DNA of 64,000 nucleotides from a bacterium. Lineage in GTDB: Bacteria > Patescibacteriota > Gracilibacteria > UBA4473. The translations under genes were made by a program, and so were the position numbers. The notes under the pieces are model-generated. The model was not told where the DNA came from, did not search any database, and saw only the letters and a program-made list of their open reading frames with translations. Every line of letters starts with the position of its first letter. Positions within the stretch are counted from its first letter, which is position 1. Shown in pieces: positions 2,807 through 62,952 of this stretch. Location of the stretch: NCBI GenBank assembly GCA_009995455.1, contig JAACPJ010000001.1, positions 45,043 through 109,042 of the forward strand, given 5' to 3'.

Positions 2807-3529
2807 ATGTCAGCAGAAAAATTAAATCGATGGGTTTCAGAAAACCGTGTGCCACAAAGGCTCCTCCTTTCAGGCAGTGGCAACCTATTAGAATTAGGCT
2901 TAAAAACGGCTTCCTTAATTTTAGATGAACCTTTGATAAAAATAACCCAAGGCATTAATCAAGATGTAAAAGTTTCGGTTGATGATGAACAATCACTTAA
3001 AATTGGAGATCGACAAAACCCTGAATCACTTAGTGTTAGAGGTTTAATTAGATGGCTGCACCAAACGCCGGTTTCTAAAAGACGCGTGCTTGTTTTAGAA
3101 AATTTAGAAAGAACCTCTCGCGACGCCATGCACACCTGGTTAAAAATTCTTGAAGAGCCGCCAGAACGAGCTCAATTTATTTTAACGACTAAAAATCATC
3201 ACCAGCTTCCAACTACAATTTTGTCACGATTGACCGTTTTGCCCATTACCGACATTCCCGTTACAAACCACAGTACTGATGCGTCTGCCTTCCTGGCTTC
3301 AAAAGATTTGATAGACCAATTCCAAATCATTGACGCACTTGATAAAACCCACAAAGACGACCCAAAAATCGCGAAACGATTTATGGATGAATTACTGCAC
3401 GAAGCCAGGCAAAACCCGCAATACCAAAGACTTATTCCTGCCTTTTTTGATGCCTACACCGATATTCAACGTAATATCAACCGACGTTTAGTGCTGGAGC
3501 ATCTTGCGATTTATATGCAAAATCGTTAA
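2807..3529 (+). CDS. holB: DNA polymerase III delta-prime-like subunit (degenerate AAA+)
   Basis: Motifs NRVPQRLLLSGSG and LKILEEPPERAQFILTT...LPTTILSRL (sensor/SRC-like). Followed by a PSP1 gene as in holB-yaaT synteny. Confidence 0.7.
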   Translation: MSAEKLNRWVSENRVPQRLLLSGSGNLLELGLKTASLILDEPLIKITQGINQDVKVSVDDEQSLKIGDRQNPESLSVRGLIRWLHQTPVSKRRVLVLENLERTSRDAMHTWLKILEEPPERAQFILTTKNHHQLPTTILSRLTVLPITDIPVTNHSTDASAFLASKDLIDQFQIIDALDKTHKDDPKIAKRFMDELLHEARQNPQYQRLIPAFFDAYTDIQRNINRRLVLEHLAIYMQNR

Positions 3530-3540
3530 ATTTAAACCAT

Positions 3541-4413
3541 ATGGAAATCTTTCAAGCTCGTGATCTTCTGCGTTATAAAACTGTAACTTTAGCCATGCCA
3601 GAAAACATGGTTCTAAGCTATAAACAACCAATTTTGCTAAAAGGCGCACGCGAAAGCATAGTCGCTGAAGTTATCGGCATGCCCCGCACTTTACCTGGAG
3701 CGCGAACCGATGAAGACCTTGAATTTTCAAAAACCTTAAACTCAGACGAAATTAAAGCCTACGAGGATCTGCAAGAAAAAAGCCAAGACCTGCTAAACCA
3801 AGTTCAGGCTGCCGCCGATGAATTAAAACTGAAAATGTATTTCTTTCATGTGCAAATTGGTTGGGAAGAAAAAACAGTGGCCTGCTGGTTTACCTCAGAA
3901 CAACCGGTAGATTTCAGAGATTTACTAAAAGCCATCACGCCTAAATTTAAAGGCCGGATTCACCTGCAACGACTCGATCCGCGAGACCGAGCCGATATTA
4001 TCGGTGGCCCAAGATGTTGCGGCCGACCAGAATGTTGTGATGTGCGACTGAGCACCAAAAAGATTTCACTTGATGCGGTGCGAGACCAAGGCATTGTAAT
4101 TCGTGGGAACGATAAACTCTATGATGTGAGCGGAAAACTGAAACGATGTTTACTGCATGAAGTCGATATGTATAGGGCAAACCGAAAATACCTGCCTCAC
4201 ATCAAACAAAGTGTAATGGTCGATGGCAAAAAAGCTCAAGTACGAGGTTTAGATATTTTAAACCGCCGCGTTAAAGTGAGCTTTATGGATACCGACGTGA
4301 TTGAGTTTTACCCGGTCGCAGAAGTTGAATACCAAGGCAAACAAGAAAGCGTTGAAGAACCGTTAGATTTCACGATGCCAGAAATTGAGTTAGACGGCGC
4401 CTTACCCGTTTAA
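3541..4413 (+). CDS. PSP1 domain protein (RicT/YaaT-like)
   Basis: Cys cluster GGPRCCGRPECC plus a PSP1-like core; conserved position after holB. Confidence 0.75.
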   Translation: MEIFQARDLLRYKTVTLAMPENMVLSYKQPILLKGARESIVAEVIGMPRTLPGARTDEDLEFSKTLNSDEIKAYEDLQEKSQDLLNQVQAAADELKLKMYFFHVQIGWEEKTVACWFTSEQPVDFRDLLKAITPKFKGRIHLQRLDPRDRADIIGGPRCCGRPECCDVRLSTKKISLDAVRDQGIVIRGNDKLYDVSGKLKRCLLHEVDMYRANRKYLPHIKQSVMVDGKKAQVRGLDILNRRVKVSFMDTDVIEFYPVAEVEYQGKQESVEEPLDFTMPEIELDGALPV

Positions 4414-24990: not shown

Positions 24991-25140
24991 ACGCTGTAAC
25001 TACCGGCTTTTTAAGTCATTTATCAAGACACAAACTTAAACCAATCTTCATGATTGGGTTTCACATTTAGACCAATGCGAGTCTCGTTGACTTTTAAGGC
25101 TAACGGGGCACAATCGCGCTTGATTAATTTAGATTTAAAT

Positions 25141-26901
25141 ATGCTCCGCACGCATCACTGTAACCAACTTCGTCCTTCAGATATTGATACTAAAGTCACT
25201 TTATCTGGCTGGGTAAATAACCGACGAGATCACGGTGGAATCATTTTTGTAGATTTACGAGATGCCAAAGGAATTACGCAAATTGTTCTTGATCCGAGTA
25301 TTAACCCCGAAGCGCATGCGGCCGCAGAGCACGTTCGAGCCGAATGGGTTTTAAAGGCCACTGGAACGGTACGAGCCCGAGGTGAAGGCTTAAATAACCC
25401 AAAACTTGAAACGGGTGAAATTGAAATCGCGATTGATAATTTAGAAATCCTCAACCAAGCGCAAACGCCTCCGTTTGAGTTAAATATTGAACAAGAAGTT
25501 CGTGAAGATTTAAGACTTGAATACCGTTATTTAGACTTACGACGCGCTAAAATGCAGCGTAATCTTCGTTTACGCCATGATATGGTAAAAGTTATTCGAA
25601 ATTATTTTGATGCCGCCGGCTTCATGGATGTTGAAACGCCAATTATGGTTAAAGGAACGCCTGAAGGCTCACGCGAGTACCTAGTCCCATCGCGGCTACA
25701 CCGTGGTGAGTTTTACGTTTTACCACAATCACCACAACAGCTTAAACAATTGCTGATGTGTGGAGGGGTTGATAAATATTTTCAGATTGCTCGATGTTTT
25801 AGAGATGAAGACCTGCGAGGAGACCGACAACCAGAATTTACTCAATTCGAGATTGAAATGGCTTTCTGTCAGCAAGAAGATGTGATGGAAGTAATTGAAA
25901 ATTGTTTTCATGAACTGACTGAAAAATGTGCGAAAGACAAGGAATGGAAAAGTTATTTAGAAAATAGGCGATTTAAGCAAATCACCTGGCAAACGGCTTT
26001 AGAAAACTATGGTTCTGATAAACCAGATTTACGCTTTGGCTTAGAGTTTGTTGATATGACCGAAGAAGCTAAAACTTGTGGTTTTGGGGTATTTGAAAGC
26101 GTTGATAGTGTGCGTGTAATGCGTGTACCAGAAGGCGGAAAACTAAGCCGAAAAGATATTGATGATTTAACTGATTTAGCCCGCAAACACGGCGCCGGTG
26201 GTTTAGCCTGGGTTCGAGTTGGCGAAGACAGCGGCCCGGTAATGAAAAACTCTAAACCAGAATTTATTAAAGCTTTAATTGAAAAAACACAGTCACAAGA
26301 AGGGGACTTAATTTTCTTTGGCGCTGGAACTTTCCTGCAAAGTGTCGAACCGCTCGGACAAGTTCGTTTGGCGGTAGCCGATAAATTCGGTCTCAAAGAC
26401 CCAAACCATTTTGCCTACGCTTGGGTAATTGATTTCCCGATGTTCGAACAAAAAGAAGACGGCAGCATGCAAGCGGCCCATCATCCGTTTACCCGACCAA
26501 ACAAAGAAGATATTGATAGGCTCGAATCTGACCCAATGAGCGTCCGTTCTTACGCCTATGACGTGGTATTAAATGGGGTTGAATTAGGCGGAGGCTCTAT
26601 TCGAATTCACGAGCCAGAACTACAAGCGAAAATGTTTGAAGTGTTAGGCTTAAGCAAAGAAGAAACCGAAATGAAGTTTGGTCATATTCTAAAAGCTTTT
26701 AAATTTGGAACGCCTCCACACGGAGGGTGCGCGATGGGACTTGATCGCGTAGTGATGCTGTTTGCTGGCGAACCAAATATTCGTGAAGTTATGGCTTTTC
26801 CAAAAAACCAATCCGCGCAAGACTTAATGCTGGGCGCACCTTCGCCAATGCCAGAAAAAGAACTCGAAGAACAAAACATTCGAGTTATTGAAGAGGACTA
26901 A
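25141..26901 (+). CDS. aspS: aspartyl-tRNA synthetase
   Basis: Start set at MLRTHHCNQLRPSDI..., which aligns with the E. coli MRTEYCGQLR. Class II motifs (FRDEDLRGDRQPEFTQ, GGGSIRIH, GLDR). Confidence 0.95.
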   Translation: MLRTHHCNQLRPSDIDTKVTLSGWVNNRRDHGGIIFVDLRDAKGITQIVLDPSINPEAHAAAEHVRAEWVLKATGTVRARGEGLNNPKLETGEIEIAIDNLEILNQAQTPPFELNIEQEVREDLRLEYRYLDLRRAKMQRNLRLRHDMVKVIRNYFDAAGFMDVETPIMVKGTPEGSREYLVPSRLHRGEFYVLPQSPQQLKQLLMCGGVDKYFQIARCFRDEDLRGDRQPEFTQFEIEMAFCQQEDVMEVIENCFHELTEKCAKDKEWKSYLENRRFKQITWQTALENYGSDKPDLRFGLEFVDMTEEAKTCGFGVFESVDSVRVMRVPEGGKLSRKDIDDLTDLARKHGAGGLAWVRVGEDSGPVMKNSKPEFIKALIEKTQSQEGDLIFFGAGTFLQSVEPLGQVRLAVADKFGLKDPNHFAYAWVIDFPMFEQKEDGSMQAAHHPFTRPNKEDIDRLESDPMSVRSYAYDVVLNGVELGGGSIRIHEPELQAKMFEVLGLSKEETEMKFGHILKAFKFGTPPHGGCAMGLDRVVMLFAGEPNIREVMAFPKNQSAQDLMLGAPSPMPEKELEEQNIRVIEED

Positions 26902-50364: not shown

Positions 50365-51462
50365 ATGACGCAAAAACAAATCGTTGATGTTAACTTTTCC
50401 GAGCTGATGTCTCGGCTACTTGATCTCTTGAGTCCAAAAGAGAGAGATGTGGTAGAGCGACGTTTTTCGCTTGGCGGAAATAAAAAAGAAACCCTAGATA
50501 AAATTGGTAAAAGCTATTCTATCACTCGTGAAAGAGTGCGACAGATTGAGGCGGTAGCGATTAAAAAGCTGGCTCGTATTTCAATGGATCCGTCAATGAG
50601 ACAGATTCACAATTTGGCCTACGAAATTTTATGCGATCACGGTCGTGTTATGGCCGAAGACCAACTAGTTTCTGAAATGCTCAAAAACATGGCGAATGCC
50701 AAGAAATTAGACACAAATGCTATTAAATTAGCGATGCGCGTTTCAGACCGCATGACAAAACAAGAGAAAAATCAATTTTACCGACCGTTCTGGAGAACGT
50801 CAGAACTTTCGTTGATGGATGTTAAAACAGTTATCAAAGGCATTCAAAAGATTATGCGAAAGCAAGGCGACGTAATGAATGTTGAAGATATTACCGAAAA
50901 ACTTGAAGGCAAGTACCCACAAGAAATGGTGAACTCTGTATTATACGTTGACTGGAGTTTTAAACGGATTGATGATCAATGGGGCTTAACCACATGGCGT
51001 CACATCAATCCTCGATCTATTAAAGATAAAATTACTATTGTGTTTAAAAACACGGGTAAACCACTCCACTTTACTGAAATTGTAAATCACGTTTTAAGTG
51101 ATTTCGATGCTAAGAAAATGGTAACGCACCAAGCGATTCATAATGAACTGATTCGTCACGATGAATTCGTGCTAGTTGGCCGTGGAGTTTACGCTCTTTC
51201 TGAGTGGGGTCTTCCATCAGGAACGGTTTGTGATCTAATCAAACAAGTGCTTGAAGAAAACGGAGAGCCAATGAAACGACAAGAAATTATCAACTCAGTA
51301 CTTAAAAAACGAGATATTCGAGTTGGTACAATCTCACTAAATCTTCAGAAGTATCCTTTCTTCCGACGAGTGGGACGAGCGGTTTACGAATACGCTGGTG
51401 AACTAGACAATCGTCGACGTCATAAAAAAGCTCAAGCCAAAAAAGCCGCTAAAGCCGAGTAA
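50365..51462 (+). CDS. sigma-70 region-4-like HTH protein with HARE-HTH-like C-terminal domains
   Basis: TRERVRQIEAVAIKKLAR (region 4.2-like). Later HFTEIVNHVL...LVGRGVYALSEW (HARE-HTH-like), and a Lys/Ala tail. Confidence 0.6.
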   Translation: MTQKQIVDVNFSELMSRLLDLLSPKERDVVERRFSLGGNKKETLDKIGKSYSITRERVRQIEAVAIKKLARISMDPSMRQIHNLAYEILCDHGRVMAEDQLVSEMLKNMANAKKLDTNAIKLAMRVSDRMTKQEKNQFYRPFWRTSELSLMDVKTVIKGIQKIMRKQGDVMNVEDITEKLEGKYPQEMVNSVLYVDWSFKRIDDQWGLTTWRHINPRSIKDKITIVFKNTGKPLHFTEIVNHVLSDFDAKKMVTHQAIHNELIRHDEFVLVGRGVYALSEWGLPSGTVCDLIKQVLEENGEPMKRQEIINSVLKKRDIRVGTISLNLQKYPFFRRVGRAVYEYAGELDNRRRHKKAQAKKAAKAE

Positions 51463-52552
51463 AGGGCGGTTCTATCAAAGATTCATTACTAAAGCGGCGT
51501 TTTACTAAAACGCCGTTTTCTTGTAGTAGTTGTTTATGATGGAGCAAACCAACCACCACAAACATCATCATGCCCACCATAGGGAGTGCAAAAGAGACAT
51601 AACCAAACTCTAGCAAAGAATTATAGATTCCATGTAAAACCATTGCCAGTAAAACACCTTCCATCATCTTTTGTTCGTGAAACAGCACTTCCCCTTTTAA
51701 ATGGATGATTTGATGTATCTTTTCCATAATTGGATGACGATTTTCTAGGACTTCGCGCTGATAGATATTATTCGCAAATTTAGCCACACCATAGAAGTAA
51801 CCTAAGATAGCTGAAAAGCTAACATGCGCTCCTACCGATACCAGTGATCGAAGGGCCACAAGCATCATAAACTCAGGCCAAGAGAACAAACTCATTCCGC
51901 TGATATTTGTGAAGTATTGAAGATTTTCTACAAAAGCAAAACCTAAGGCTACCACAATCGAAAACTGAATCGCCTCGCCAACAGAATGTATTTTTTCTTC
52001 ATTGGAAAATCTTAACACCAGGTGCTTGGTAAATTCTTCAAGTATTCCAACAATCATAAAGAGCCAAACTTTTTCATGCATTGAAAGCGTTCCCGCAAAC
52101 GCGACTAATCCACAGATAATTCCAACGGATATAAAGAAGAAGGGCGCTTCTAAAATCTTTCGGAACTTACGCCTAAATACCACGAAACTATTATCTCCGG
52201 TCATGGTTTCAAGCACCATCATTATCAAAGCGACAAAGGTAAAAATACCAAAAACAACCATTACTGTAGCCGTAATATATGCCAGCAGTGCACTAGCGCT
52301 ATTGGAAGAGACGAGGTCTCCCAAATAAACAAATAAGTTTGTATGCGCTAAAAAAACAACGCCTTGATCCCAATATTTTTCATAGAGCTTAATCGGTAAT
52401 ACCGATAACATTCCGGCAATAAAAGTCAGCACTAAATAGTGCTTATTCTTCGGTAAATTATTTCGGAAGAAGAACAGCCAAAGCAAAATAGGCAGCAAAG
52501 AAATAGTGCCAAAAAACAACCAATTTTGCGTTAAACTCTCAAACAAACTCAT
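51449..52552 (-). CDS. PrsW-family intramembrane protease
   Basis: Polytopic, with GILEEFTKH and HGIYN motifs. Confidence 0.7.
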   Translation of the reverse strand: MSLFESLTQNWLFFGTISLLPILLWLFFFRNNLPKNKHYLVLTFIAGMLSVLPIKLYEKYWDQGVVFLAHTNLFVYLGDLVSSNSASALLAYITATVMVVFGIFTFVALIMMVLETMTGDNSFVVFRRKFRKILEAPFFFISVGIICGLVAFAGTLSMHEKVWLFMIVGILEEFTKHLVLRFSNEEKIHSVGEAIQFSIVVALGFAFVENLQYFTNISGMSLFSWPEFMMLVALRSLVSVGAHVSFSAILGYFYGVAKFANNIYQREVLENRHPIMEKIHQIIHLKGEVLFHEQKMMEGVLLAMVLHGIYNSLLEFGYVSFALPMVGMMMFVVVGLLHHKQLLQENGVLVKRRFSNESLIEPPFTRL

Positions 52553-59022: not shown

Positions 59023-60027
59023 TTAAAGTTTTTCAACCAGTTCTACTAAACGACTTGAATATCCCCATTCGTTATCGTACCAAGCTAAAACTTTCACCAA
59101 ATCACCCATCACCATAGTTTCAGCCGCATCTACAATCGAAGATCTAGAATCTTGCTTGTAATCACTTGAAACTAAAGGACGAGTCTCAAATCCTAGGATA
59201 TGAGGCATTTTATCCGAAGCTGCCTTTAAGGCCGCATTCACTTCTTCCGCCGTGGCTCGCTTTTTAACCTGAACGGTTAGATCAACCAGTGATACGGTTG
59301 GAGTCGGAACCCGAACCGAAGTTCCAGTCATTTTTCCTTTTAATTCTGGAATTACCAAAGCTACAGCTTTAGCGGCACCGGTTGAAGTTGGGATAATATT
59401 TAAAGCCGCTGCTCGAGCGCGACGTAAATCACTATGACCCACATCTAAAATTCGTTGATCATTGGTGTAAGAATGGATTGTAGTCATTAACCCCGCTTCA
59501 ATACCAAAGCTATCATTAAGTACTTTAGCTACCGGAGCTAAACAATTTGTCGTACAAGAAGCACAAGAAAGAAGAGTTTCTTTACCCGTGATTGAATCAC
59601 AATTAACCCCAATTACGAAGGTAGAAAATCCGTCCCCTTTTGCCGGAGCCGAAAGCACTACTTTTTTAGCTCCTTGATCAATATGAGGCTGCGCGGTTTC
59701 AACGGTTCTAAAAACCCCCGTACATTCAAGCACGACGTCGATTTCTAGTTCTTTCCAAGGGAGTTCAGTGATGCTACGAGAACCAAAACTTCGAATCCGA
59801 TCATCACCAACCTGTAAAAATTCTTTCCCCTCTTCTTCAACGACTGAAACTTCTTTCCCTAGTCGCCCAAAGTTACTATCAAATTGAAACAGCAGCGCTG
59901 TTTGTTCTGATGGAGAAGGATCATTAATCGCTACTAATTCAAGGGTGTCTCGATGATCGGCCAGAATTATTCGAGCCGCAGCTCGTCCAATTCGTCCAAA
60001 TCCGTTAATGGCCACGCGTTTTTTCAT
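59023..60027 (-). CDS. gap: glyceraldehyde-3-phosphate dehydrogenase
   Basis: INGFGRIGR, SCASCTTNCLAP active site. Confidence 0.95.
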   Translation of the reverse strand: MKKRVAINGFGRIGRAAARIILADHRDTLELVAINDPSPSEQTALLFQFDSNFGRLGKEVSVVEEEGKEFLQVGDDRIRSFGSRSITELPWKELEIDVVLECTGVFRTVETAQPHIDQGAKKVVLSAPAKGDGFSTFVIGVNCDSITGKETLLSCASCTTNCLAPVAKVLNDSFGIEAGLMTTIHSYTNDQRILDVGHSDLRRARAAALNIIPTSTGAAKAVALVIPELKGKMTGTSVRVPTPTVSLVDLTVQVKKRATAEEVNAALKAASDKMPHILGFETRPLVSSDYKQDSRSSIVDAAETMVMGDLVKVLAWYDNEWGYSSRLVELVEKL

Positions 60028-60093
60028 GTGTATTTTGAAGATAAAATTCTGCCGTATTATACCCGAATTCAGCCTTTATGTGAACCCAAAACT

Positions 60094-60122
60094 TTGACAT
60101 TTAACCGAGTAAAATTTAATCT
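60094..60122 (+). promoter_or_regulatory. candidate thrS promoter
   Basis: TTGACA (60094-60099), 17 nt, TAATCT (60117-60122). Confidence 0.5.
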
Positions 60123-60130
60123 TTTATTCG

Positions 60131-60175
60131 ATGTTAAACTGCACCACCACCACGCTGACCCGTAAAACCGAATAA
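60131..60175 (+). CDS. Thr-codon leader peptide MLNCTTTTLTRKTE
   Basis: ATG TTA AAC TGC ACC ACC ACC ACG CTG ACC CGT AAA ACC GAA TAA, which is 6 Thr in 14 codons. It sits 8-9 nt after the -10 hexamer and 80 nt before thrS. Confidence 0.6.
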   Translation: MLNCTTTTLTRKTE

Positions 60176-60245
60176 ACGGCAGGTTTTGGTGACTTATATT
60201 TTACCCCAATGCTCCTGCCAAAAACTGCTGGAGACTTCTTTAATT
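60164..60245 (+). promoter_or_regulatory. candidate transcription attenuator (alternative 1:2 / 2:3 / 3:4 helices)
   Basis: Three mutually exclusive pairings. AAAACC (60164-69) pairs with GGUUUU (60182-87). GGCAGG (60178-83) pairs with CCUGCC (60214-19). CUCCUGC (60212-18) pairs with GCUGGAG (60227-33), followed by ACUUCUUUAAUU. Confidence 0.45.
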
Positions 60246-60255
60246 GAAAAATCCT

Positions 60256-62013
60256 ATGAACGCTTCTGAATTAACCCTTGAAGAACGACGCCGTCATACC
60301 GGCTCCCATGTCTTATCTTACGCCGTCGGAATGGCCTTCAAAGACGTTAAAAGAGGTGTAGGACCACATACAGAAACGGGTTTTTACCAAGATTTTGATT
60401 TTGGCGACCAAGACGTTTCAGACAAAGATTTTAAAGCAATCGAAAAAAAGATGCGCTGGATTGTAAACAAAGACTTTAAAGTTGTACGTGAAGAAAAAAC
60501 ACCAGCCGAAGCTCGCGAGTATTTTGCCAATGATGAATATAAACTCGAACTTATCGACGAAATTGAGGCTCGGGGAGAAACGCTTACTTTTCATAATTTT
60601 GTAAATGAAGGTGGTGAACCGGTCTATCAAGACTTATGTATGGGCGGACATTTAAACTCAACCGGTGAACTAGGGGTTTTCAAGCTGACTAAAATGGCCG
60701 GCGCTTACTGGCGCGGTTATAGCGACCGCACCATGATGAATCGAATCTATGGTGTGGCTTTTAAAGACGAAGCCGAACTTAAAGCCTATCAAGAATTATT
60801 AGAAGAAGCGGCCAAACGCGACCACCGTAAACTTGGAGCGGAACTAGATTTATTCACTTTTTCTGAAAAAGTTGGTTCTGGTTTGCCGCTTTTTACGCCA
60901 AAAGGGGCCTTTATGCGCAACCAAATCAAAAACACAATTATGGATATTCAAGGCCAGTATGGCTTTGAAGAAGTGTATATTCCTCATATTACTAAAAAAG
61001 AGCTGTACGAAACCTCAGGGCATTGGGATAAATTTAAAGACGACTTATTCCACGTAAAGGGCAAAGGCGATACTGAGTTTGTGATGAAGCCAATGAACTG
61101 TCCGCATCACACTCAAATCTACGCTTCACAAATGCGTTCTTACCGAGATTTACCGATTCGTTACGCGGAAACCACCACCTGTTACCGTGATGAGCTACCG
61201 GGAGAACTACTTGGATTGAGCCGCGTTCGTGCCCTCACTCAAGATGATGGACATGTTTTTTGTACCAATGATCAAGTGGGTGAAGAAGTACAAAATTTAG
61301 TAAAAGTGGTTCGTGAGTTTTACACCAAATTAGGCATGTGGAGCGAAGATCAATTTTGGGTGAGTTTATCGGTTCGTGATATGGCTAATAAAGAGAAATA
61401 TTTAGGGCAAGATGAACACTGGAGCCAAGCCGAAGATTTTTTAGAATCCGTAGCACAAGGCGAAAAATTACCTTACAAAAGAGTCGAAGGAGAGGCAGCC
61501 TTTTATGGACCAAAATTAGATTTTCAATTCAAAGATGCCATTGGCCGTGAATGGCAATTGGCTACCATTCAAATAGATTTTGTACAACCAGAACGGTTTG
61601 AGCTGGAGTACATTAATGCCAAAGGTGAAAAAGAACGTCCCGTTATGATTCACCGCGCCATTGCCGGAAGTCTAGAACGATTTATGAGTGTGATTATTGA
61701 ACATTTTGCCGGCGCTTTCCCGGCTTGGCTCGCTCCAGTACAAGCTCATATTTTACCCGTAAACCAAGTGCACGAAGACTTTGCCTATAACTTAGCGGCT
61801 CAGTTAAAAGACGCTGGTGGAAGAGTAGAGGTTTACAATCCAACCGACAGTTTAGGCAAAAGAATTCGTAACTCTCAAACCAAGAAAATTCCATACACAC
61901 TTGTTGTGGGAGATAACGAAATGAATTCAGGAAAAGTGAACGTCCGCTCTTACGGCAGTGAAAAAGAAGAAACCATGGGACTCGACCAATTTATTGAACG
62001 ACTGAACGCTTAA
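60256..62013 (+). CDS. thrS: threonyl-tRNA synthetase (no TGS domain)
   Basis: Starts in the editing domain (RRHTGSHVLSYAV). Class II core (MNCPHH, FRDLPIRY-like, GSLERF) and an anticodon-binding C-terminus. Confidence 0.95.
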   Translation: MNASELTLEERRRHTGSHVLSYAVGMAFKDVKRGVGPHTETGFYQDFDFGDQDVSDKDFKAIEKKMRWIVNKDFKVVREEKTPAEAREYFANDEYKLELIDEIEARGETLTFHNFVNEGGEPVYQDLCMGGHLNSTGELGVFKLTKMAGAYWRGYSDRTMMNRIYGVAFKDEAELKAYQELLEEAAKRDHRKLGAELDLFTFSEKVGSGLPLFTPKGAFMRNQIKNTIMDIQGQYGFEEVYIPHITKKELYETSGHWDKFKDDLFHVKGKGDTEFVMKPMNCPHHTQIYASQMRSYRDLPIRYAETTTCYRDELPGELLGLSRVRALTQDDGHVFCTNDQVGEEVQNLVKVVREFYTKLGMWSEDQFWVSLSVRDMANKEKYLGQDEHWSQAEDFLESVAQGEKLPYKRVEGEAAFYGPKLDFQFKDAIGREWQLATIQIDFVQPERFELEYINAKGEKERPVMIHRAIAGSLERFMSVIIEHFAGAFPAWLAPVQAHILPVNQVHEDFAYNLAAQLKDAGGRVEVYNPTDSLGKRIRNSQTKKIPYTLVVGDNEMNSGKVNVRSYGSEKEETMGLDQFIERLNA

Positions 62014-62952
62014 ATGCTGAATTCTATACCGGTACAGTGGCGAGGCTTTAGCCTGGCCGCTTTGGCCATGATTTCTTTTACCATTGGTTCACTTGGAACT
62101 AAGTTAGCCCTTAATGCCAGCGCTATAGATTTTTACAGTATAGCCATTTGGGGCTGGGGAAGTGGGATGGTCGCCGCTACGCTCTTTTTTTTCTTGCCCC
62201 TTAAAAGTCAACGAGAAGAATTGTTACCCGAATTAAAAAAACATAAACAATTCTTTGGAATTATTTCCGTTTTAACCCTTATTAACGGCTCCACTTGGTT
62301 TTATGGTATGTCGCAAATTAACGGCGGTGTAGTGGCTTTGCTCGATCAAAATGTGATTGTTTGGTCATTTTTACTAGGAGCATTATTTTTAGGGGAACGT
62401 TTTAGCTGGCGGCAACTCTCGGCTATTTCTATTACCATTCTAGGTCTTGTAATCATCTCCAATTTAAAAGGGGAAGTCACTCTTCTGGGTATTCTTTGCT
62501 TACTGACTTGTGGGCTTTCAATTTCACTACAAAGTTTACTGATTAAAAAATATAAACTGCCATTTAATGCCTTGGCATTAGCCTTTTGGCGGGGTTGGGC
62601 CATGGTCATATTTTCATTCCTCATTAGTTTATCACTCGGTATTTTTCAATCGCAAATTGAACTCTATGCCTTAATAACCGTGGGTGTGGCTCAATTTTTT
62701 GGGCTTTTTGTGGGTCGAGCCGCCTACATTAAAGCGCATGAGTTTTTACCCATGTCACATTTAAGTTTTTTGATGCTAGGAATCCCAATAATCGTGCTTC
62801 TAAGCAGTTTTGTCGTTTTAAATGAACCAGTCAGTCTGCAAAAAATCATCGGCGCTCTCGTCATGCTTTCTGGGCTTATTTGGTTTTTCACTCGAAAAGC
62901 GAAAAGAGCCAAACAAAAAAAAGCCGAACCACTCGTGTCCGGCTTAAACTAA
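62014..62952 (+). CDS. EamA/DMT-family transporter
   Basis: 10-TM-like, two EamA halves. The ATG directly follows the thrS stop (TAAATG). Confidence 0.75.
   Translation: MLNSIPVQWRGFSLAALAMISFTIGSLGTKLALNASAIDFYSIAIWGWGSGMVAATLFFFLPLKSQREELLPELKKHKQFFGIISVLTLINGSTWFYGMSQINGGVVALLDQNVIVWSFLLGALFLGERFSWRQLSAISITILGLVIISNLKGEVTLLGILCLLTCGLSISLQSLLIKKYKLPFNALALAFWRGWAMVIFSFLISLSLGIFQSQIELYALITVGVAQFFGLFVGRAAYIKAHEFLPMSHLSFLMLGIPIIVLLSSFVVLNEPVSLQKIIGALVMLSGLIWFFTRKAKRAKQKKAEPLVSGLN

Follow-up and report, generated by a model that had tools for sequence, protein, structure and literature searches.

The trp, his, thr and pheST attenuators share one logic, in which alternative pairings of four RNA segments, 1:2, 2:3 and 3:4, exclude or permit a terminator. 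In Escherichia coli pheST (pheM), an aminoacyl-tRNA synthetase operon, a short leader open reading frame (ORF) of cognate codons is combined with a choice between terminator and antiterminator, so that the leader senses the charged cognate tRNA; the enterobacterial thr operon leader (thrL, RF00506) likewise joins a Thr(/Ile)-rich peptide to a four-segment attenuator. Here we describe a candidate of this class in a 64-kb stretch of a Gracilibacteria contig (JAACPJ010000001.1; hereafter the window), where a threonine-codon leader ORF and a set of competing hairpins at 60094–60255 precede thrS, the gene of threonyl-tRNA synthetase (ThrRS). The locus has the parts by which leader-peptide attenuators are recognized, namely an ORF of cognate codons, a terminator before the gene and, as predicted by folding, a sequestered antiterminator. 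Sequence comparison and structure modelling indicate that it is very probably a ribosome-mediated leader-peptide attenuator, which would set the expression of thrS, and probably of the adjoining eamA, by the supply of charged tRNA-Thr.

The window leader differs from pheST in its amino acid, and the two have no sequence relation; moreover, the pheM leader has a 5′ untranslated region (UTR) and a Shine-Dalgarno (SD) sequence, whereas the window leader starts 8 nt after the −10 box without an SD. The enterobacterial thrL governs thrABC and uses Ile codons too, whereas the window leader precedes thrS. The Rfam Thr_leader model (RF00506) gave no match in the window at the gathering score, in 59950–60400 at E ≤ 10, or in three related loci (L003, L005 and L083; L numbers denote loci of our comparison set). 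Rfam as a whole, run on the window at the gathering score and on the region at E ≤ 10, returned only spurious matches to eukaryotic long noncoding and small nucleolar RNAs, and did likewise for L083.

Nearer in form are leaderless leader peptides of other phyla. In Streptomyces lividans, a leaderless mini-ORF at thrS (thrL, peptide MKRVRPFLETTPGFVPAR, two Thr) was proposed to be a Thr-dependent attenuator, with no clear terminator (Droste et al. 2021, PMC8079986); in Deinococcus deserti, leaderless leader peptides were found at aminoacyl-tRNA synthetase genes and attenuation was predicted (PMC4007540); and in Streptomyces such peptides were predicted at trpS and leuS (PMC1262725). The leaders of Deinococcus and Actinobacteria (PMC4007540, PMC1262725, PMC8079986) resemble ours in having the start codon at the 5′ end of the transcript, and lie before cysS, trpS, leuS and alaS; they differ in belonging to other phyla and other synthetases. 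The preliminary description of the window, made from its sequence alone, had taken a threonine leader at thrS for a mechanism not yet described; given the precedents in S. lividans and D. deserti, this can no longer be said. In the literature, S. lividans thrL is the only earlier leader-peptide case at thrS that we found, and we found no report of such attenuators for the Candidate Phyla Radiation (CPR; also named Patescibacteria). The Streptomyces peptide has two Thr and no clear terminator, whereas the CPR leaders described below have 4–10 Thr and both a T-tract terminator and an antiterminator, and they occur in ~28 genomes of another phylum. The mechanism class is already known, and the novelty lies in the combination of target and lineage and in the sequence family.

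On re-reading positions 59700–60500, we found all the sequence elements listed in the preliminary description (Table 1). The promoter it called sigma70-like is present and ends 8 nt before the ORF; its −10 hexamer agrees with TATAAT at only 3/6 positions, and for this reason a consensus scan does not list it. Among the intergenic mini-ORFs of the window that start with ATG, the leader alone has at least 6 of one residue in 10 codons, and threonine makes up 43% of it, vs 5.7% of the window proteins. Segment 1 does overlap the ORF, as had been proposed, but the AAAACC stretch in the last codons, which had been taken for its pairing part, falls in a loop; in the minimum free energy (MFE) folds the pairing part is 60145–60163. 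In the free RNA, a 1:2 helix of 14 bp (60145–60163 with 60176–60191) forms together with the 3:4 hairpin, at −19.9 kcal/mol; the 1:2 duplex has −15.7 kcal/mol. Helices 1:2, 2:3 and 3:4 are mutually exclusive, and segment 2 begins 1 nt past the leader stop codon, so that a ribosome sitting at the stop covers it.

From these elements we infer where transcription starts, that the ORF is translated, that transcription ends at the hairpin and that the locus responds to threonine, in three steps. Transcription would begin at or a few nucleotides from the leader AUG, and a ribosome initiating without an SD would translate the 14-codon ORF as RNA polymerase proceeds. With ample Thr-tRNA(Thr), this ribosome would get to the stop codon (60173–60175) and mask segment 2 or, if it had already gone, segment 1 would hold segment 2; either way, the 3:4 hairpin and the U-rich tail would stop transcription ahead of thrS. 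With Thr-tRNA(Thr) in short supply, the ribosome would stall on the ACC/ACG run (60143–60160) and mask segment 1, and the freed segment 2 would pair with nascent segment 3 (GGCAGG:CCUGCC), such that no terminator would form and the polymerase would enter thrS-eamA. By analogy, this physiological logic would match that of the pheST attenuator and of T-box control of aminoacyl-tRNA synthetase genes.

We compared 160 thrS loci, half of them (80) taken from species-representative genomes and the other 80 from metagenomes; all leader-bearing genomes are uncultured metagenome-assembled genomes (MAGs). A Thr-rich short ORF lies upstream of thrS in 28 distinct loci of Gracilibacteria/Peregrinibacteria-type CPR genomes, among which ThrRS identity goes down to about 47%. 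These ORFs have 11–16 codons (median 14) with 4–10 Thr (median 7), which make up 51% of the residues, and a dominant single residue appears in frame 0 alone. All four ACN codons are in use (61/51/44/28 occurrences), so the constraint falls on the decoding of threonine and not on a nucleotide string. The last Thr codon stands 1–2 codons ahead of the stop in 26/28 loci, and besides Thr the peptides share no sequence, as seen in L005 (MQQMTTTTTTTTH), L010 (MINVTATTTTT), L063 (VKTTTTTTGTTTTE), L029 (MLAITTTTTTTTA) and L002 (MKNSTTTTLICTSL). Within the genome set, the element was found in 20/25 loci labelled Gracilibacteria, Peribacteria, Peregrinibacteria or Altimarinota, as well as in L016 and L029, which bear other labels (Paceibacterota for L029); the remaining ~50 other-lineage loci of that set have no Thr leader element. 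In an unbiased scan, both strands of all 161 sequences were searched for mini-ORFs next to a promoter in which one residue occurs at least 5 times and makes up at least 33%. Of the 43 matches, 31 were for Thr, and 29 of these 31 share the strand of thrS and lie a short way upstream of it; S, L, K, F and N gave only scattered singletons.

Each of these loci has the same layout built from its own sequences, with an antiterminator/terminator pair and a T-tract after the ORF. The final sense codons and the stop codon pair with the sequence just 3′ as a small hairpin (e.g., CCGAAUAAAAUUCGG) that has the stop in its loop. The sequence 3′ of the stop runs on as segment 2, often YNGGAGRUUU, which is complementary to segment 3 (AUCUCC...), and segment 3 also pairs with segment 4 (..GGRGAU). 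Because segment 3 is complementary to both, segments 2 and 4 are near-repeats within a locus; the repeated sequence varies among loci (CUGGAG, CGCGGGAU, GGCAGUUUU, AGCGGUU, CUCGRG). The terminators of the relatives have −7 to −11 kcal/mol and T5–T9 tracts. In six loci, A-runs paired with the T-tract made automatic terminator detection unusable, so hairpins were defined by hand. The central claim of the preliminary description, that a Thr-codon leader with four-segment logic controls thrS, is thereby supported, since mini-ORF, Thr run, T-tract terminator and competing antiterminator are all kept in the relatives.

The start of the leader is conserved in placement as well. A TTGACx-16/17-TAnnnT promoter ends 6–10 nt before the leader AUG/GUG in 19/24 loci, and none of the 24 loci examined has an SD before the leader start. 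This spacing and the lack of an SD suggest that the ORF is probably translated leaderless, from a 5′ UTR of 0–3 nt, which agrees with the near-leaderless mRNA proposed at the outset. A 5′ UTR of 0–3 nt has been reported for leader peptides in Streptomyces (PMC8079986) and Deinococcus (PMC4007540). In the window, SD-like motifs precede 2/52 genes, and a crude count of leaderless-type genes gave 6/52 vs 2.9 expected, which is not significant.

The predicted switch was modelled by masking the RNA up to 13 nt beyond the first nucleotide of the ribosomal A site and computing the probability of the terminator pairs. In the window, this probability is 0.95 for the free RNA and 0.97–0.98 with the ribosome at the stop, and 0.00–0.03 with the ribosome on Thr codon 5, 6, 7, 8 or 10; footprints of 9–17 nt give the same outcome, with at most 0.06 on Thr codons 5–10. 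When a ribosome occupies the Thr run, the GGCAGG:CCUGCC helix, already named as the 2:3 pairing in the preliminary description, is the MFE structure once 60219 has been transcribed (−12.5 to −13.7 kcal/mol). The 2:3 fold then has −13.7 vs −12.5 kcal/mol for the best fold that holds the terminator, and a second antiterminating fold reaches −15.2 kcal/mol. When a switch is defined as a terminator probability of at least 0.7 at the stop and at most 0.2 when stalled, with the best Thr position picked per locus, 18/23 loci switch as predicted. Dinucleotide-shuffled spacers keep the terminator (median probability about 0.9) and match the observed value in 4/200 cases for the window and in 0–10/200 for 15/23 loci.

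We further built a covariance model, R1, from 16 loci and helices 1:2 and 3:4. In about 1.3 Mb, R1 matches 21 distinct loci, every one upstream of thrS on the thrS strand: 19/21 lie directly upstream, and in L004 and L009 another gene stands in between. Outside the seed there are six matches, namely five distinct loci (L029, L041, L004, L009 and L098) and L104, a duplicate of L041, and on ~78 other-lineage thrS loci R1 has no match. In the model alignment, covariation of 1:2 and 3:4 is 0.345 vs 0.170 in shuffles (0/500) and above every slid register, and both sides change in 11/13 pairs. The window row is one column off register in segment 3 in both alignments, so the helices of the window were judged by folding.

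Some of the loci depart from this layout. In L009 (2934–3855), the leader VKNTTTANTTTTSE and segment 2 are intact, and a 220-aa NYN-domain gene (3086–3748) separates them from thrS; this gene is flanked on either side by copies of the CGCGGGAU segment, as though it had been inserted into the attenuator. In L004 (3291–4001), the leader MQKNTTATKTTIQA and a terminator are followed by an extra ORF of ~170–190 aa without Pfam match and then by thrS, an order in which the attenuator would govern a two-gene operon. The leaders MNVTTTTTTTTTGF of L041 (3886–3930) and L104/L105 (2386–2430) end at TGA. Some Gracilibacteria use code 25, in which UGA is read as Gly; if these genomes did so, the ORF would extend by 7 codons to a TAG inside segment 2 and the geometry of the switch would be altered.

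Several observations weigh against a leader-peptide attenuator in the window. The terminator of the window is the weakest of the family, with 6 bp, a U-U mismatch and −6.1 kcal/mol, followed by the interrupted tail ACUUCUUUAAUU, as the preliminary description had cautioned; a terminator with the tail ACUUCUUUAA is present but weak, and the close relatives L002, L081 and L001 likewise have short T4–T5 tracts. The energy gaps between window conformers are small, 1–3 kcal/mol, and 5/23 loci lack a predicted switch. The folding stability of the whole 136-nt region is unremarkable (z = −1.27, 25/200 shuffles folding at least as well). The seed loci of R1 were picked by the analyst among those having the ORF, and the loci are phylogenetically related, so that the counts exceed the number of independent events. 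Of the compensatory changes looked for in relatives, those in 1:2 and 3:4 exceed all shuffles, and covariation of the antiterminator helix 2:3 is marginal: in an alignment not fitted to it, this helix is 70.9% paired and scores 0.252 vs 0.205 (25/500), the best of seven registers, and on a plain MAFFT alignment it is not above shuffles. Lastly, the leader of L001 (MKNCATLTLIKKIA, 101–227), the nearest relative whose leader differs and with a ThrRS 90% identical to that of the window, is down to 2 Thr, and that of L044 (MKGKRTNITIVMGF, 3885–4000), which keeps the frame of the L041 leader, has 2 Thr left. Both still have the ORF frame and the stop-codon hairpin; being short of Thr codons, they indicate that the element is dispensable or decaying in some genomes, which suggests loss or relaxation of control there. 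With these points counted, we still consider it highly likely that a Thr-sensing leader-peptide attenuator of thrS, working now or until recently, is present in the window.

The weak terminator bears on an account in which the leader ORF and hairpins act chiefly on thrS translation or mRNA stability, for instance by ribosome-dependent opening near the SD-less start, or in which termination is assisted by Rho or NusA/NusG. The hairpin and U tract of the window are poor for intrinsic termination, the hairpin ends 22 nt before the AUG of thrS, which has no SD, and weak terminators stimulated by factors are known in Bacillus. Yet in most relatives the hairpin runs straight into T5–T9, the signature of intrinsic termination, and in all loci the thrS start is outside the hairpin, 15–90 nt further downstream. 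We regard this account as distinctly unlikely; in the window, factors may be required for termination, or the hairpin may have a further effect at the SD-less thrS start close by.

It is very improbable that the leader is a chance mini-ORF in an ordinary 5′ UTR, with incidental hairpins and constitutive thrS transcription from this promoter. The window on its own gives a case beyond chance only weakly: its folding energy is ordinary, its terminator is weak, and 6 Thr in 14 codons has a binomial probability of ~6e-5 per ORF, a figure to be weighed against the roughly 1500 small ORFs that the window contains. The case beyond chance therefore rests on the comparative data. The Thr-rich ORF, the stop geometry, the terminator and the antiterminator recur together in the 28 distinct loci down to the ThrRS identity given above, Thr ORFs directly upstream of thrS make up 29 of the 43 matches of the unbiased scan, and the covariance model matches upstream of thrS only. 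These related loci are not assembly duplicates, since their sequences differ throughout, and chance is already refuted by this conservation.

An untranslated RNA sensor would be either a reduced T-box-like element with an ACC specifier for the tRNA-Thr anticodon or a ThrRS-binding mimic of the anticodon arm of tRNA-Thr, of the kind known at E. coli thrS. The T-boxes at thrS of Firmicutes, Chloroflexi and some CPR serve the same gene, use the tRNA-Thr charging signal and have a terminator/antiterminator output; a T-box reads uncharged tRNA directly and free of translation, whereas the CPR leader is an ORF without a detectable T-box. T-boxes have a specifier loop and a conserved sequence (..GGUGGNACCGCG..) that forms the antiterminator with the 3′ end of the tRNA. 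The T-box family RF00230 has no Rfam match in the window, and there is none in the window at E ≤ 10 or in L083 at E ≤ 5; TGGNACCRCG is absent upstream in every leader-bearing locus. At the gathering score, 17 loci gave no T-box match, a permissive search being needed for the reduced T-boxes of CPR.

Other lineages do have T-boxes at thrS, which served as positive controls of the search, and those in CPR speak for such a sensor. Two Chloroflexi MAGs, L056 (3630–3868) and L061 (3605–3866), carry them at 86–91 bits, and reduced forms precede thrS in L020 (986–1158), L031 (3743–3918) and L032 (1–146) at 39–44 bits (E 1e-5 to 1e-8). The latter three, labelled Kaiserbacteria or Saccharibacteria, score well below the Rfam gathering score of 93 yet retain the GGGUGGNACCGCG box along with a terminator; they have the look of reduced T-boxes and would escape standard annotation. 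Also in favor of an RNA sensor are the anticodon-like GGU/UGU strings in segment 2 (UUUUGGUG), which are there because segment 2 complements Thr codons. On the other hand, the Thr codons lie in one frame running from a promoter-proximal AUG/GUG to a stop at a fixed position, and they form runs of 4–10 codons with a freely varying third position, not one specifier. The E. coli operator is comparable in that ThrRS feeds back through the 5′ leader of its own mRNA, by binding a tRNA-Thr anticodon-arm mimic next to the SD, whereas the window has an ORF, no SD before thrS and no anticodon-like loop: its predicted loops (AAAACCGAAUAA, CAAAAACU and CUUAUAUU) lack the Thr anticodons GGU, UGU and CGU. 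Taking both sides together, we hold a sensor of either kind to be highly unlikely. That the ORF codes for a Thr-rich micropeptide with a function, the hairpin serving simply as its terminator, is extremely improbable: the length and position of the ORF are conserved, but its peptides have nothing in common besides Thr and no signal or modification context, the terminator always has a competing antiterminator positioned relative to the stop codon, and thrS always comes downstream, either as the next gene or as the last one of an operon.

Table 1. Coordinates of the leader elements and neighboring genes in the window
Feature	Position	Strand	Basis or remark
−35 hexamer TTGACA of the leader/thrS promoter	60094–60099	+	Sequence reading; TTGAC(A/T) kept at the same place in relatives
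−10 hexamer TAATCT	60117–60122	+	17-nt spacer from −35; ends 8 nt before the leader ATG
Leader ORF (thrL-like), 14 codons, MLNCTTTTLTRKTE	ATG 60131 to TAA 60173–60175	+	6 Thr; homologous Thr-rich ORFs in relatives
Thr codons of the leader	ACC ACC ACC ACG 60143–60154; ACC 60158–60160; ACC 60167–60169	+	Sequence reading
Segment 1	60145–60163	+	Takes in Thr codons 5–8 and 10; 14 bp with segment 2; MFE folds
Segment 2, ACGGCAGGUUUUGGUG	60176–60191	+	Alternative partners: segment 1, or segment 3 (CCUGCC) via GGCAGG 60178–60183
Segment 3, CUCCUGCC	60212–60219	+	Terminator, 5′ arm; antiterminator, 3′ arm
Segment 4, GCUGGAG	60227–60233	+	3′ arm of the terminator hairpin; 6 bp and U-U mismatch, −6.1 kcal/mol
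U-rich tail ACUUCUUUAAUU	60234–60245	+	Weak, interrupted; relatives with T4–T9 tracts here
thrS, threonine–tRNA ligase, 585 aa	60256–62013	+	TIGR00418, 648 bits (cutoff 384)
EamA/DMT transporter gene	62014–62952	+	ATG on the base right after the thrS TAA
gapA, divergent, upstream of the leader	59023–60027	−	Own promoter-like site
aspS (AspRS with GAD domain), only other synthetase gene in the window	25141–26901	+	

The ThrRS of the window has the tRNA_SAD, class II core and anticodon domains of Pfam, and no TGS domain was found by Pfam; its closest relatives are encoded by CPR MAGs labelled Gracilibacteria, Peribacteria, Peregrinibacteria or Altimarinota. The window agrees with the standard genetic code: table-11 ORFs cover 83% of it, and TGA is rare (TAA ends 36/52 and TGA 3/52 of the long ORFs). 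Since the thrS stop and the eamA start abut, the two genes are probably co-transcribed in the window, and an eamA also follows thrS in six other loci (L001, L003, L010, L034, L081 and L082; 35–87% identity); most other loci with enough flank have no eamA there. The preliminary description had placed the gene under the same control, which the gene order favors, and had hinted at a link of its family to threonine, for which we found no tie: NCBIfam gave the protein just generic DMT matches far under the cutoffs, an RhtA-like threonine-exporter identity was dropped on account of these weak matches, and a threonine link of EamA is speculation. Inside the last eamA codons, at 62921–62945, lies a strong hairpin (AAGCCGGACACGAGTGGTTCGGCTT) with a T-run on the minus strand, which resembles a terminator for the convergent minus-strand genes; the plus strand has no T-tract there and so offers no obvious end of the thrS-eamA transcript.

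On the other side of the leader, the good gapA promoter-like site TTCACA-17-TATAAT (11/12; 60056–60084, minus strand) and the leader promoter are back-to-back neighbors separated by 10 nt, and the divergent gapA-thrS order is preserved in at least 18 related loci. Upstream of aspS (24991–25140) there is a promoter-like TTGACT site, and no Asp-rich mini-ORF or obvious attenuator was found in that interval; with aspS lacking a cognate leader, leader-peptide control is not general for synthetase genes here. Elsewhere in the window, a His-rich frame (..NHHKHHHAHH..) at 51530–51613 (+) runs antisense within the gene at 51449–52552, with no ATG start and no intergenic context, and was set aside as a leader ORF and treated as probably due to chance.

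A wider claim can be framed jointly from these elements: that they form an undescribed class-wide cis-regulatory family, the first ribosome-mediated attenuator recognized in CPR, which in Gracilibacteria/Peregrinibacteria came to occupy the thrS position that a T-box has in other CPR lineages, and that its co-transcribed EamA is a threonine-related transporter. All of this together is rather unlikely to hold; if it did, the switch would tie the host-derived threonine supply to charging and transport in auxotrophic epibionts. The partial thrS-eamA linkage is in any case a lead to the substrate of an uncharacterized transporter. The leaders constitute a candidate RNA family absent from Rfam and, beside the one weak case in Streptomyces, provide a clean and far stronger instance of thrS controlled by a Thr leader, and two solutions, T-box and leader peptide, are found at one gene within one radiation. 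CPR bacteria have tiny genomes and their gene regulation is almost unknown, and an attenuator would open it to experiment. A conserved leader-peptide attenuator implies coupled transcription and translation in these cells, as well as SD-less, probably leaderless, initiation efficient enough for sensing. As judged from sequence and modelling, at least one class of these bacteria would monitor the charging of tRNA-Thr to tune the level of ThrRS.

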